The notes: generated from the letters alone by a model not told the origin. Shown: positions 8,407-29,117, numbered from the stretch's first letter. The stretch: 32,568 nucleotides of DNA from an uncultured Candidatus Saccharibacteria bacterium (GCA_964523595.1 CAZFZO010000001.1:5633-38200); one strand, 5' to 3'. Program-made: numbers and translations.

Positions 8407-9462
8407 TTATGCGCTTTTCAGCTTGTACTTACCTTCAGCAGTGCGCTCGAAATACTTCTTATTCTGGAGGTTAAACAAGATAGTGTTTTCCTTGAAGATA
8501 CGGCGCTTGAGGACTTCAGCCATAATATCTTTTGGCTTCATCGGTCCAGACTTCTTTAAGATATGAACAAGCACTTCACGAATTGTTCCTGCAGGAAAAT
8601 CATCATTCTCACGTAGACCGTAGATGCCACGGCCAACTAAGATAAAGCGCTTATCCTTGATGAGTTCGTTGTGAATCGTCTGGGTGTTAGTCTTTTTCTC
8701 ATTACGCATTCTGCGGATCTCCTCGGCGATCTCATTGAAGTGCATCGGACGATTCGCCTTCTTGAGAATCAAGTAAATCCAGTCACGAGAAACCTTTGGG
8801 TTGACCTCTTCCCACTCCGTGAGACCGAAATCACCAAACTTGTTTTTGCCGAACTTTTTAGAAATCGTAAGATAGTGACGAGCAACCTTCTCTTCAACTT
8901 TGTGAAGTTTCGTTACCTCACGGAAGAAGTCATCAAACTTCTTGCTGTGGAGAGTTTCCTGCTTCTTATCCTTGAGCTGCTTAATGAGCGTATCAAGGAA
9001 ATCAAGTGCACGCTTCTGGTGCTCTGCGGAAAGATGCCAGTGCGAGAAAAGCTCCTCGTCTTCGCGGTGATAGGTTAGTGCTCCGGAGAGCTCGAGCAAG
9101 AAACGAACTTGATTACCAAAACTCTTATTGAGATCTGATGGGTGAGCAAAAATCTTTATCTCCTCAAGCAAATTGCCCTCATGGCGAACGCCAGCAGAAT
9201 CTTTGAGTCGGTCAACAGATGTACTAACAATTTCATTCAAATGACCACCCTTCGCCTTTTTACCTACCTCTTTTAAAGCGAGTGCTTCGATCTGACGAAT
9301 ACGCTCACGCGTAACGCCAAACTGCTTACCAAGTTCGGCCAACGTCATCTCGTCGGTCGTATCAAGTCCATAACGCTTAACTAAAACTTTGCGCTGACGC
9401 GGATCAAGATCAGAGAACAACTCTTCTATGATTACGTTTGTAGTTTTTGACGGATTCGCCAT
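8407..9462 (-). CDS. Sigma-70 region-4-like HTH protein fused to HARE-HTH/winged-helix domains (no region 2 visible)
   Basis: The N-terminus RQRKVLVKRYGLDTTDEMTLAELGKQFGVTRERIRQIEALALKEV is a classic sigma region 4.2 signature. The C-terminus RPMHFNEIAEEIRR...LIKDKRFILVGRGIYGL is HARE-HTH-like, followed by a second winged-helix-like repeat. Confidence 0.75.
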   Translation of the reverse strand: MANPSKTTNVIIEELFSDLDPRQRKVLVKRYGLDTTDEMTLAELGKQFGVTRERIRQIEALALKEVGKKAKGGHLNEIVSTSVDRLKDSAGVRHEGNLLEEIKIFAHPSDLNKSFGNQVRFLLELSGALTYHREDEELFSHWHLSAEHQKRALDFLDTLIKQLKDKKQETLHSKKFDDFFREVTKLHKVEEKVARHYLTISKKFGKNKFGDFGLTEWEEVNPKVSRDWIYLILKKANRPMHFNEIAEEIRRMRNEKKTNTQTIHNELIKDKRFILVGRGIYGLRENDDFPAGTIREVLVHILKKSGPMKPKDIMAEVLKRRIFKENTILFNLQNKKYFERTAEGKYKLKSA

Positions 9463-10104: not shown

Positions 10105-11004
10105 TTATTTAGCCTTTGCAGACTTATTCCAGAGAACGAGTAATGGCGAGGCAACGAAAATCGAAGAGTATGTTCCGACGACCGTACCAACCAAGATCGT
10201 TAAGATAAAGTACTTAAGCGTTGTGGCTCCAAGTAGAAGCAAAACCGCAAGCACAATAAACAAGGTAAGCGAAGTATTGAGCGAACGAGCAAACGTCTCG
10301 TTAATACTGCGGTTAACCAATTCGCTAAAATGAACCTTACTCGTATCAGTGTGACGAAGATTTTCACGAATACGGTCAAACACAACAATCGTGTCGTGAA
10401 CCGAGAAACCGATAACGAGCAGTACCGCAACAATAAAGTTAGTATCAATTTCTACTCCCAGGAAGTGTCCGAGGAAAGTGTACATACCCAGCGGGATAAT
10501 CGCATCGTGGAAAAGTGTAATCAAGGTGATAAACGCATACTTCCAGCTACTTACCGGATACGAAACCTTACGAAACGCGTACGCGACATACAGCGCAATA
10601 CCAAACAAGTTGATGCCTAACGCCCAAAATGCTCGATTAACTAACTCTGAACCAATCGCCGCACCGATCGCCTGGAAACTCAACTCGGTCATCGGACCAA
10701 AACTCTTTATGAGCGCTTTATTATAAGCCTGGTGGTCCGCTTCAGTAATCTCTTTTGCCTTGATAATAAATCCTCCGGTCGACTCCTGCTGGTTTACTAC
10801 CGCATCAGCTAATTTCAAATCAGTTTGTACAAATGTACGAATCGCCGAAAGCTCTACTGGCTTACTAAACTCAACCTGCCAGTACGTACCACCGGTAAAA
10901 TCAATACCCTTCTCAAGACCAAAGGCGAAAAGACCAAAAACGCTCGCAACAATCAAGAGACTAGAAAACGTCAGAAAAATCCACTTGTGTTTAATGATGT
11001 TCAT
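10105..11004 (-). CDS. secF: Protein translocase subunit SecF
   Basis: GIDFTGGTYWQVEF signature, six-TM architecture, directly downstream of secD. Confidence 0.9.
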   Translation of the reverse strand: MNIIKHKWIFLTFSSLLIVASVFGLFAFGLEKGIDFTGGTYWQVEFSKPVELSAIRTFVQTDLKLADAVVNQQESTGGFIIKAKEITEADHQAYNKALIKSFGPMTELSFQAIGAAIGSELVNRAFWALGINLFGIALYVAYAFRKVSYPVSSWKYAFITLITLFHDAIIPLGMYTFLGHFLGVEIDTNFIVAVLLVIGFSVHDTIVVFDRIRENLRHTDTSKVHFSELVNRSINETFARSLNTSLTLFIVLAVLLLLGATTLKYFILTILVGTVVGTYSSIFVASPLLVLWNKSAKAK

Positions 11005-26684: not shown

Positions 26685-27086
26685 TTATCCAGTAATCTTA
26701 CGCAAAATCATCTGATACTCCTCTGTCGACGGCTCAACCAGCGTCCCATCAAGGTGCACTTTCGAGGTAATGTCAGTACGTTCTTCGATAGGCACAACGT
26801 GCACGTGCGCGTGTGGCACATCCCAGCCAGCGATAATCAGTCCCACTCGTTTTGGCTTAAGTTTCGCCTTCAAAAGCTTCGCAGTCTTATGCACAGTTAA
26901 CATCATCGCTTGATACGTCTCGGTATCGAGTTCATCAAAGTCAGGATTGTGCTTTTTCGGAATAACCAGCGTATGCCCCGGACGAATCGGCCCCTTAGTT
27001 AAAAAAGCCATTGTCTGCTCATCTTCTGACACCTTAAACGCCGGAATCTCTCCCTTTACGATCTTACAAAAAATACAAGTATCCAT
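26685..27086 (-). CDS. HIT-family (histidine triad) hydrolase
   Basis: CIFCKIVKGEIP N-terminus and the HAHVHVVP histidine triad. Confidence 0.9.
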   Translation of the reverse strand: MDTCIFCKIVKGEIPAFKVSEDEQTMAFLTKGPIRPGHTLVIPKKHNPDFDELDTETYQAMMLTVHKTAKLLKAKLKPKRVGLIIAGWDVPHAHVHVVPIEERTDITSKVHLDGTLVEPSTEEYQMILRKITG

Positions 27087-27304
27087 AGCTAAAATGGTAG
27101 CACAATTTATATAGAATTATCTATTCAACTAAATAGGTGCAATGTATAGTTCAAGATTTTTTGCCAAGCGCAAGGCGCCAAGCCGAAGTTGTAAGACAAC
27201 ATCGAAATAGATAGCGGAGGATTTTCATAGCGGTACGAGGCGCAAGGGCGAAGCTGTACATAAGCAACAGCGTACTGCGAGCCTGCAGCAACAAAGTACC
27301 GCCG

Positions 27305-27336
27305 TAAAAAAACCCGCTAAGTGCGCTGCTTAAGGG
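27305..27336 (-). terminator. Weak terminator-like hairpin plus U7 tract after the duplicated tRNA 3' fragment
   Basis: CCCGCTAAG (27313-27321) pairs with CTTAAGGG (27329-27336) as 4 + 3 bp with an internal loop. The A7 run at 27306-27312 gives U7 on the minus strand. Confidence 0.35.
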
Positions 27337-27350
27337 AATCGAACCCTTGT
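27322..27350 (-). pseudogene. Orphan tRNA-Glu 3' fragment (variable loop end, T arm, acceptor 3' strand, discriminator +2)
   Basis: 29/29 identical to 27713-27741 (tgcgctgcttaagggaatcgaacccttgt on the plus strand). No matching 5' acceptor strand GCTGCTT anywhere in 27351-27712. Confidence 0.85.
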
Positions 27351-27683
27351 CGACCAGTATCCCGACGGTAGCTCTTGCGGCGTTGCAAGCCTGTCGCGCA
27401 CAGGACAAGGAACGCGAAGTGAAAATATCGGAAATATATGAACGACAAGCGACACAGTAATGTGCGCGACAGGCAGCAACCTCCGGACACGATTCCGTGA
27501 GGCAAACTGCTGCGTTGCTCGCACTCAACATATCACCGATATATTCTCGCGCTCGCGCCTTGCATTTCGCCTCACGGAAAGTGTCGCCGCGGAGATTACC
27601 GTCAGGACACTGGTCCTGCCGGAGAGGGCTAGCCCTCTCACGGCGCAAACAAAGACGCGAATACTCCTAGCCAGCACAAAATC
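27351..27683 (-). ncRNA. Candidate structured RNA / element remnant between the tRNA-Glu repeats (strand and ends uncertain)
   Basis: G+C-rich and non-coding-looking. Perfect long-range complements are 27389-27402/27461-27474 (14 bp) and 27493-27503/27569-27579 (11 bp). An 18-nt palindrome lies at 27622-27639, a hairpin at 27603-27618 and a hairpin at 27374-27389. The segment is bracketed by two terminator-like hairpins. Confidence 0.3.
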
Positions 27684-27708
27684 AAAAATGGGACTTTGTC
27701 CCATTTTT
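27676..27708 (-). terminator. Rho-independent terminator directly after tRNA-Glu (perfectly symmetrical)
   Basis: AAAAATGGGAC-TTT-GTCCCATTTTT (27684-27708). On the minus strand the stem is followed by TTTTTGATTTTG. Confidence 0.7.
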
Positions 27709-27714
27709 GACATG

Positions 27715-27786
27715 CGCTGCTTAAGGGAATCGAACCCTTGTTTGCGCCGTGAGAGGGCGCCGTCCTAGCCACTAGACGAAAGCAGC
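27715..27786 (-). tRNA. tRNA-Glu (anticodon CTC)
   Basis: Hand fold of the minus strand: GCTGCTT-TC-GTCT-AGTGGCTA-GGAC-G-GCGCC-CTCTCAC-GGCGC-AAAC-AAGGG-TTCGATT-CCCTT-AAGCAGC-G. All stems are Watson-Crick or G-U. No encoded CCA. Confidence 0.9.
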
Positions 27787-27797
27787 AAACAAAACTC

Positions 27798-29117
27798 CTA
27801 AGCTGACTTTTCCGCTCGCACAGTCAGCCCCTCAACCACGGTTTTAAGTCCCACCGCCTTAGAGGCTTTAATTAAAACTAAATCTCCCGATTTTATCAAG
27901 CTCAAGCAAGCAACTAGCGCATCTTCCGCACTCTTACACACAATCACCGACTTCGCAGGCATCTTCGCCTTTTTCGCCGCCTCCGCCACAACTCCCGCAT
28001 AATCTCCAACCACAACGAGCACGTCTAATGAGCGCGCAGCCAACCGACCAAGCTGTTCGTGTGCCATCTGACTAAACTTTCCCAGCTCACGCATATCTCC
28101 GAGTACACCAATCTTCCGTTTCGCCTTAAGCTCGCTTACCGCCTCGAGCGCATTACCCATCGAAAGTGGCGAAGCGTTATACGCGTCATCAAAAAGAAGC
28201 GACTCGTTAATACCCGCAACAAATTTAAATCGATGAGCTGGTGGCTGATAATACGCAAGCGCATCCGCAATCTTTACCAAATTCATACCGCAGCTAAGCC
28301 CAACCGCTGCTGCAGCCGCACACGCGTACGCCTGGGCTCTGCCAAGAGTTCCCGAAATACGTACTGGCGCAAACGCCCCGTTATACGAAAGCTTAAACGT
28401 CACGCCGATCGGACGCGGGAAACGAATCCCCTTACCCGACTCAACTTTTGTCTCAAAATTATCAACGCGCACCTGCGCCCCCTCGCCAAAACCAAAGGTA
28501 ATCGTCTTCGCACGTGTCTTATCCTTCATTGAAAATACTCGCTCATCATCAGAATTAAGAACCGCGCTGCCGCTGACTAAAAGCGCCTCAAGAAGCCGCC
28601 CTTTTTCAATCGCAACCGCATCTGGCCCATCATAATACTCAACATGAACTGGCATATCGCCAACCGCCGTAACCACGCCGATTTGCGGACGAGCGATCTG
28701 CGTTAAATATTTAATGTCTCCCGGACGATCAGCGCCATACTCAAGAATAAGAAACTCTGGATATGCTTTTGCTGAACCAAACAATAAGCGTGTCGCGCTT
28801 ACTAAAATCACCTTGAGCCAAAAAAACGCCTTGGCCACGACCCTCCCGCCCGGTGCCGCGTCACGACTGATTAAGCGCAAATCTTCCTCACGCCACTCAC
28901 CTAAAATGGCCAACGGAAATCCAACTTCGCTGTTGTGACTATCAGCTGATGCCCGCACTCGAAACGCACTCGAAAGAACCGATTTAATCGCAAACTTGGT
29001 CGAAGTTTTCCCCACACTTCCCGTAACGCCAATCACCACTGGCTTAAACTTAGCCAGCGTCGCCTTCGAGAGTACGCGTAAAATCGACTCGAGAGTTTTG
29101 CGAACAAATACACGCAT
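27798..29117 (-). CDS. murF: UDP-N-acetylmuramoyl-tripeptide--D-alanyl-D-alanine ligase MurF
   Basis: VIGVTGSVGKTSTK P-loop, DDAYNASP motif, and position after ftsI in the dcw cluster. Confidence 0.9.
   Translation of the reverse strand: MRVFVRKTLESILRVLSKATLAKFKPVVIGVTGSVGKTSTKFAIKSVLSSAFRVRASADSHNSEVGFPLAILGEWREEDLRLISRDAAPGGRVVAKAFFWLKVILVSATRLLFGSAKAYPEFLILEYGADRPGDIKYLTQIARPQIGVVTAVGDMPVHVEYYDGPDAVAIEKGRLLEALLVSGSAVLNSDDERVFSMKDKTRAKTITFGFGEGAQVRVDNFETKVESGKGIRFPRPIGVTFKLSYNGAFAPVRISGTLGRAQAYACAAAAAVGLSCGMNLVKIADALAYYQPPAHRFKFVAGINESLLFDDAYNASPLSMGNALEAVSELKAKRKIGVLGDMRELGKFSQMAHEQLGRLAARSLDVLVVVGDYAGVVAEAAKKAKMPAKSVIVCKSAEDALVACLSLIKSGDLVLIKASKAVGLKTVVEGLTVRAEKSA

Follow-up and report, generated by a model that had tools for sequence, protein, structure and literature searches.

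A probable MITE-type foldback element lies among tRNA-Glu fragments in a small Patescibacteria genome

The locus was analysed in a window of 32,568 nt, the whole stretch of DNA under study, from the 0.73-Mb genome (64 contigs) of an uncultured Candidatus Saccharibacteria bacterium. On the minus strand, a Mur-ligase gene is followed by a tRNA-Glu(CUC) gene, ~630 nt of gene-free DNA and a HIT-family gene (Table 1). The initial annotation had remarked on some 700 bp of non-coding DNA at this place, and indeed the tRNA is the sole gene in the ~710 nt from 27087 to 27797. A Pfam search of the open reading frames within this interval gave no match, and only the tRNA reached the gathering threshold when the window was searched with Rfam 15. 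A terminator scan of positions 26900 to 27950 identified a single site, directly downstream of the tRNA. The same arrangement is found, with 93% identity, in G001, the genome of a sister species in the same genus. There, the HIT gene is separated from the orphan tRNA piece by a gene for a 309-aa patatin-like phospholipase (L005 1916-2845), of which only ~115 nt of the upstream region are left in the host genome (27207-27322). A 10-nt near-repeat, AATACTCCTA and AAAACTCCTA (27660-27669 and 27791-27800), brackets the tRNA-Glu gene together with its terminator, which hints that this block was perhaps itself inserted or duplicated.

Table 1. Features of the interval between the Mur-ligase and HIT-family genes, in minus-strand order
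Feature	Position	Strand	Remarks
Mur-ligase gene (murF)	29117-27798	minus	
tRNA-Glu(CUC), intact	27714-27786	minus	ARAGORN; Rfam RF00005, 63 bits; 100% identical in same-genus G001
Terminator-like hairpin and U-run, directly 3' of tRNA-Glu	27681-27711	minus	13-bp perfect arms
Inverted decayed copy of tRNA-Glu positions 22-71	27624-27675	plus	local alignment score 49
18-nt palindrome GAGAGGGCTAGCCCTCTC	27622-27639		inverted anticodon-arm copy joined to sense anticodon-loop fragment
Foldback (MITE-like) element, four-way junction, 264 nt	27352-27615	minus	architecture common to five other full copies in this genome and to other phyla
Outer helix, 5' arm (terminal inverted repeat)	27597-27615	minus	
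Hairpin 1	27491-27584	minus	covariance model R1, 67.2 bits, E 1.8e-17
Invariant block CAAGGCGCGAG of hairpin 1	27562-27552	minus	
Invariant block GCGAGCAACG of hairpin 1	27522-27513	minus	
Mini-hairpin/linker CCGGAGG joining the long hairpins	27480-27486	minus	
Hairpin 2, decayed inverted copy of hairpin 1	27384-27476	plus	R1, 20 bits, E 1.7e-5
Outer helix, 3' arm (terminal inverted repeat)	27352-27370	minus	one base from orphan tRNA piece
Orphan tRNA-Glu 3' end (variable loop, T arm, acceptor 3' strand and 2 nt)	27322-27350	minus	identical in G001
Third decayed hairpin module, spacer before HIT gene	27214-27315	plus	R1, 19.3 bits, E 2.7e-5 to 0.003
HIT-family gene	27086-26685	minus	

The insert between the terminator and the orphan tRNA piece had been described as G+C-rich and densely self-complementary, and both descriptions hold. 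Its G+C content is 0.559, compared with 0.469 for the window and 0.476 for the genome, and all the complements that had been listed were found, among them a 14-bp complement with exact arms (27389-27402 and 27461-27474), an 11-bp complement whose arms reach 18 nt (27493-27510 and 27562-27579) and the 18-nt palindrome of Table 1. Two smaller hairpins noticed at 27603-27618 and 27374-27389 are present in the sequence but are outcompeted in the predicted fold by the longer helix between 27352-27370 and 27597-27615, which rivals both and is common to the family described below. The predicted minus-strand fold has an energy of -212.1 kcal/mol, against -145.6 +/- 5.5 kcal/mol for shuffled sequences (z = -12.2); the plus strand gave z = -11.3.

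Since five other copies in the genome fold into an element of ~265 nt, the element proper was placed at 27352-27615 (264 nt). Its outer helix is formed by 19-nt arms that are 89% complementary on the plus strand and fully paired, with G.U pairs, on the minus strand, and that can be extended to ~29 nt with bulges; one U.G pair of this helix is C-G in G001. Hairpin 1 carries two internal-loop blocks, whose family form is CAAGGCGYGAG and GCGAGCAACG and which can pair with each other as a GCGAGC/GCGAGC helix with tandem G.A pairs. At the position of the mini-hairpin, other copies have CCGAAGG, CCUUCGG or CCCGAAGGG. Hairpin 2 matches the hairpin 1 covariance model on the opposite strand (33 bits in G001) and shows two double compensatory changes relative to G001. 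The region of the third, decayed module is also present in G001. It is here that the initial annotation had seen a hairpin and U7 following the T arm of the orphan tRNA piece; the terminator scan did not report this site, and the U-run is part of a stem of the decayed module.

The element is surrounded by pieces of tRNA-Glu. A single base separates its 3' end from the variable loop of the orphan tRNA piece, which is one half of a perfect 29-nt direct repeat (27322-27350 and 27713-27741) that brackets 362 nt. On the other side of the element, a 50-nt inverted alignment covers the anticodon arm, T arm and acceptor 3' strand of the tRNA, with a perfect 21-nt inverted repeat over the anticodon arm and variable loop (27632-27652 versus 27738-27758).

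From these features the initial annotation had proposed an RNA of ~370 nt closed by a tRNA-like acceptor/T-arm module; such a dedicated non-coding RNA would resemble tmRNA in plan. The fold is strong, a T arm and acceptor 3' strand are present, and GTGCTG (27677-27672) is complementary over six bases to CAGCGC (27328-27323); the corresponding outer strands of G011, a genome from another genus, also pair (GUGCUA with UAGCAC). However, the T arm and acceptor 3' strand are the perfect direct repeat of the 3' end of the neighbouring tRNA-Glu, and the 5' acceptor-like strand, GUGCUG..GCUAGGAG, is the complement of the inverted decayed tRNA copy, so that the two strands pair because both derive from the same tRNA segment. 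In G001 the 5' strand reads GTGCTA, which introduces an A.C mismatch, and the pairing is used by neither the minimum-free-energy fold nor the consensus fold. The unit lacks a D arm and an encoded CCA, and the Rfam tmRNA and tRNA models gave no match over it. What folds is a core of 264 nt, and it belongs to a multi-copy family of mobile-element type that is found also at places with no tRNA nearby. The proposed RNA is thereby largely refuted and we consider it highly improbable: read as a MITE copy among duplicated tRNA-Glu fragments, the insert would not be a separate RNA gene closed by a tRNA-like module. In this reading, a new tRNA-tailed RNA gene at this locus is a false lead.

The resemblance to tmRNA is limited to a length of ~360 nt and to a T arm with acceptor 3' strand at the 3' end; there is no match to the tmRNA model (RF00023), no alanine-type acceptor and no tag reading frame, and ARAGORN likewise reported no tmRNA over the insert. 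The genome has its own tmRNA elsewhere (contig C14, 85.6 bits), which shows no similarity to the insert. ARAGORN was also silent at the tmRNA loci of this genome (L009) and of G001 (L029), where the Rfam model scores 85.6 and 102 bits, respectively, and thus misses the tmRNAs of these genomes.

The usual att identity block at tRNA genes extends from the variable loop to just past the tRNA 3' end, and the perfect 29-nt repeat, which starts in the variable loop and stops 2 nt beyond the 3' end, has this extent. A direct repeat of a tRNA 3' end that brackets foreign DNA is what attL and attR look like, and in the sister genome an extra gene, the patatin-like one, lies just beyond the orphan repeat. 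The insert might accordingly be read as the recombinase-less remnant of an integrative element at the tRNA-Glu 3' end, although we regard this as improbable. A complete MITE-type element that has inverted repeats of its own takes up 264 of the 362 nt between the repeats, and scrambled tRNA pieces lie beside it, one of them inverted, which is not expected of such a remnant. No integrase is encoded in the 362 nt, and the extra gene in G001 is not a recombinase. Furthermore, G011 has the same junction together with an orphan tRNA 5' half upstream, which integrase recombination does not produce. The only tyrosine recombinase of the host genome (the sole PF00589 match) is on another contig, C22, at 8704-9231; it lies ~1 kb from a tRNA-Leu gene (10239-10321) and may mark an integrated element there. 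Contig C22 also carries a copy of the present element (846-940).

In G011, the right end of the element abuts the variable loop and T arm of a tRNA-Glu. At this locus (L166 1433-1896), a tRNA-Glu-like gene appears to have been interrupted twice: a complete tRNA-Glu(CUC) (1494-1569), surrounded by inverted repeats of 18-22 bp, lies in the anticodon loop of the outer tRNA, and a MITE-like element lies in its variable loop; the orphan 5' half is also present. The orphan acceptor strands still pair, with one double change. A related arrangement was seen in G007 (L163 1437-1620), where a complete tRNA-Glu(CUC) is enclosed by an 18-bp helix, CCCGCCCAAAUUUUAUAU with AUAAAAAAUUUAGGCGGG, which in turn comes after a Glu-like 5' half. 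A decayed remnant of an anticodon stem and T arm follows the nested tRNA, and the flanking inverted repeats resemble those of G011.

Comparison with G001 indicated that the fold has been maintained, since pairing was kept in 17 of 17 variable paired columns (34 columns 3' of the tRNA are variable, 17 of them in predicted pairs). Five pairs changed on both sides, and none was broken. Seven pairs changed on one side, all of them between G-C and G.U on the minus strand. Unpaired columns, too, show mostly U/C changes (9 vs 4), so that a mutational strand bias could yield the G.U pattern, and the double changes can also be produced by arm-to-arm correction of a DNA palindrome. The upkeep of the fold thus reflects either selection on a hairpin or the correction of one palindrome arm by the other, and RNA-level selection on the element is not established.

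A BLAST search of 400 genomes of the order found only members of the same genus and one weak match in G004, from another genus, which later proved real: it corresponds to a homologous three-branch fold with no tRNA nearby. As BLAST was nearly limited to the genus, homologues called for a covariance model. One-genome-per-species contigs were searched for the pattern CAAGGCGYGAG plus GCGAGCAACG with a variable gap between them, and the block pair was found in more than 118 stretches from at least eight phyla among the matches listed, almost always spanning 48-54 nt end to end. The matches listed include Verrucomicrobiota (often several per genome), Gamma- and Betaproteobacteria, Acidobacteriota, Fibrobacter, Lentisphaeria, Brocadiia, Myxococcota and Nitrospirales. 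When folded, their surroundings follow one plan, with an outer helix of 20-30 bp, hairpin 1, a mini-hairpin of the form CC-loop-GG, and hairpin 2. A single match in a viral sequence looks like chance in coding DNA, and viral carriers were rejected.

A covariance model of hairpin 1 (R1) was built from 46 diverse, de-replicated sequences. In these, 84% of the cells of the basal stem are paired, compared with 55% after shuffling, and the stem covaries with a score of 0.675 versus 0.189 in shuffles, none of 500 shuffles scoring as high as the alignment. The loop blocks are invariant across the 46 sequences, an invariance for which the pattern search itself had selected. In the host genome, R1 has seven matches, at this locus and at six other sites, five of which fold into the whole ~265-nt element. 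Among these copies the sequences of the outer helix vary greatly while their pairing is retained. R1 matched at least once in 12 of 12 genomes of the host's Patescibacteria family, and copy numbers in five other carrier genomes were at least 109, 46, 24, 11 and 7; 150 other Patescibacteria genomes had no match at E up to 1e-6. Such patchy spread is expected of horizontally moving DNA. Culturable carriers include Arhodomonas sp. AD133, with at least 109 copies, Intestinirhabdus alba and Stutzerimonas stutzeri 24a75. No constant neighbouring protein of the copies was found, the recurrent neighbours being ABC ATPases.

The search for homologues and covariation thus returned relatives of the insert, and the Rfam models, among them RNase P, 6S, SRP, introns, ROOL, GOLLD and HEARO, gave nothing over it at E up to 10. 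Rfam also gave no family over the motif in 18 loci of other phyla, and nothing at E up to 5 over a proteobacterial copy. Literature searches on the motif letters and on MITEs found no description of this family. The novel structured RNA suggested in the initial annotation therefore stands as a large conserved fold outside Rfam, but belongs to a multi-copy element of mobile type and is not a unique RNA. The family is new to Rfam, and its hairpin core is uncatalogued, its cross-phylum conservation unexplained. One simple hairpin signature defines it from Patescibacteria to Verrucomicrobiota, Proteobacteria and Acidobacteriota, and its covariance model would be useful in RNA and repeat libraries, where it would prevent re-reporting as a novel RNA.

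The G004 copy (L006 1280-1640) is located directly downstream of smpB (1653-2171), a position where ssrA is often found. No tmRNA above the Rfam cut-off was detected anywhere in this genome, which is 91% complete (best score 25.5 bits).

Mobility of the family is visible at contig C8 of the host genome, where a copy occupies a site whose orthologue in G001 is empty. The filled site has the sequence ..ACAA-TA-ATATCTAATT..(252 nt)..AATTAGATAT-TA-TGGATTTC and the empty site of G001 ..ACAACAA-TA-TGAATGATTTC, and the comparison indicates an insertion with duplication of TA. The insertion of this copy (L184 1472-1723, against L192 ~1495 in G001) took place at a TA immediately upstream of a gene: at the right end of the element, the duplicated TA shares bases with the start codon ATG of that gene (MDFIVEK..), whose counterpart in the element-free G001 reads MNDFIVEK. 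The copy at the tRNA-Glu locus is present in both genomes. Near-identical Verrucomicrobia copies begin with TA-GTGCACCGTCTC and end with its complement plus TA, often within CTAG, and the proteobacterial and enterobacterial copies examined have TA on their flanks. In the window copy, TA is lacking at the helix ends, and the ends themselves are unlike those of IS630-type elements. The element thus has features of a MITE: it is 264 nt long and non-coding, with changes relative to G001 that track the stems, has terminal inverted repeats, is multi-copy, and differs in presence or absence between close relatives (the C8 copy). A cognate transposase acting in trans on matching ends was not found in the host family, and was found only in a distant Verrucomicrobia relative.

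This Verrucomicrobia carrier genome has 62 matches to DDE_3 (IS630-family) transposases. Two loci in this genome have the element directly beside an IS630-family insertion sequence, with a single TA in common, and the insertion sequence encodes a 354-aa protein with HTH and DDE_3 domains. The ends of the insertion sequence, TA-GTGCGGCGTAGC and TA-GTGCATTGTAGC, resemble the element end TA-GTGCACCGTCTC. The pair of element and insertion sequence is 98.7% identical between the two loci while the flanks differ, with TA at each bound, and the two have evidently moved as one unit, using one end from each. Mobilisation of the IS630 type is thus suggested for that lineage, as judged from the sequence of one genome. 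The family resembles IS630-family insertion sequences (HTH plus DDE_3, TA duplication) in its TA target, in this likeness of ends to a resident copy and in their joint movement. Unlike them, it has no transposase gene, the ends of the window copy are not IS630-like, and no DDE_3 transposase was detected above the cut-off in the host genome and its family. More broadly, transposases of IS4/IS5 type (PF01609, PF13586) and IS630 type (PF13358) were not found above the cut-off in 12 family genomes, a result to be read with the frequent lack of IS copies in MAGs.

An IS5/IS1031-type origin was weighed against this. ISLrh, of the IS5/IS1031 group, has ends GAACCTGTCTAGTATCT and a TNA duplication (PMC12016507), and the proteobacterial copies of our family begin (A/G)GAGCCTGTC, resembling the ISLrh end. 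The flanks, however, fit a 2-bp TA better than a 3-bp TNA, and no partner transposase of the DDE_Tnp_1_2 family (PF13586) was detected in any of 5 carrier genomes or 12 family genomes. A TA-duplicating, IS630-type relationship is therefore favoured for the family.

Considering these findings, we read the insert as a composite, in which a foldback element of MITE type sits in duplicated tRNA-Glu material next to the tRNA's terminator hairpin, and assign this reading a probability of roughly 0.68. The odd 700-nt non-coding stretch in a very compact genome would then be a transposon relic with tRNA debris. TA duplication is the target signature of DDE transposases of the IS630/Tc1-mariner type, and the element would be a 264-nt non-autonomous foldback transposon whose relatives insert at TA and duplicate it. 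Because no such transposase was detected in the genome or the family, the window copy is most likely an old, immobile relic. We infer that a second copy of tRNA-Glu, now dead, was disrupted by the element within its variable loop and probably rearranged afterwards, giving a palindrome. The tRNA-like closure would be a by-product of the tRNA duplications and not a functional module.

Several features fit this composite reading less well. The transposase link comes from one genome, and the window copy itself has neither TA at its ends nor IS630-like ends. Within the genome the outer helices are divergent yet paired, more like constrained old paralogues than recent movers. Across phyla, the loop blocks are invariant and the terminal repeats variable, even of different classes, which is the opposite of a typical MITE and suggests a core with a function of its own. 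In addition, 11 of 13 copies in the Patescibacteria family lie between co-directional genes in sense orientation, and the seven one-sided changes relative to G001, all G-C/G.U on the minus strand, are a hint of constraint at the RNA level.

The closest known parallels are the ERIC elements and the Correia elements of Neisseria, both TA-duplicating MITEs, of which ERIC has been catalogued as MITEEc1_IS630 (PMC11602168). Like them, the present element is non-coding and multi-copy, has ~250-280 bp and terminal inverted repeats, shows TA target duplication (here in relatives of the window copy), differs in presence between close species and would form long hairpins when transcribed, as our fold prediction indicates. 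It departs from them in that the interior is conserved and not the termini, with two loop blocks letter-identical across phyla, and in that it folds as a four-way junction with one core and different terminal repeats. Its GCGAGCAACGC block may resemble part of the ERIC consensus. No similar sequence was seen in E. coli, where BLAST of 5,426 genomes gave no match, and there was one plasmid match; a relationship to ERIC or to E. coli sequences was rejected. RNase III cleaves Correia RNA at the inverted repeats, and ERIC alters transcript levels (PMC10969869). Read-through transcription from murF and tRNA-Glu towards the HIT gene could likewise yield an RNA in which the element folds as a long-armed four-way junction, and by analogy cutting of this junction, or stabilisation of the transcript by it, would be expected.

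The invariant core could also be seen as a functional structured RNA that rides on mobile elements, either a protein-binding or catalytic domain or a signal for transcript processing. We consider this unlikely; in the small-genome lineage, the core would then have been kept as a multi-copy, sense-transcribed RNA module. The internal-loop blocks are invariant while the stems covary, the core occurs with a different class of terminal repeat, and no pair is broken among the 17 variable paired columns relative to G001. The sense orientation of 11 of the 13 Patescibacteria-family copies would also fit, as would the basal stem of hairpin 1, where G.U exceeds A.C (40:9 in alignment counts and 44:22 with duplex folding). 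The bias of 40:9 did not, however, prove an RNA, as it failed once whole elements were counted: the ratio was 29:29 over whole elements in the copies of this genome and 92:103 for hairpin 1 by minimum-free-energy folding. U/C changes dominate the unpaired columns as well, so that mutational bias could explain the G.U pairs; the five other copies in the host genome fold better on the antisense strand; and across phyla no orientation bias was seen (11 of 30, with crude gene calls). More than 100 copies per genome are typical of selfish DNA. Since the strand evidence is mixed, no promoter-like site was found near the insert and a good terminator follows the tRNA, transcription was treated as read-through only, and an RNA function of the element is unproven.

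The wider form of this idea, equally doubtful in our view, is that the hairpin module is an undescribed functional RNA or single-stranded DNA motif that travels across phyla on miniature transposons with interchangeable ends. It could serve as a docking site for a universal host factor, as a processing signal or as a catalytic core, and in the reduced, transposase-less Patescibacteria family it would have been kept as sense-transcribed structured RNAs. The letter identity of a MITE's interior, and not of its ends, across phyla is the question raised by these data, and the sole part that is possibly new biology.

Three other transposase associations were considered and rejected. The ends of the element do not recur at the IS4/IS5 transposase loci of carrier genomes, and Y1 (RAYT) genes in carrier genomes have no hairpin beside them. 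Remnants of IS630 elements lie beside enterobacterial copies, but this is adjacency only, as the termini are not shared. In Intestinirhabdus alba (L214 1637-1697), a 57-nt mini-palindrome consists of the two terminal repeats of the element without its core; part of an IS630-type transposase gene lies 17 nt away.
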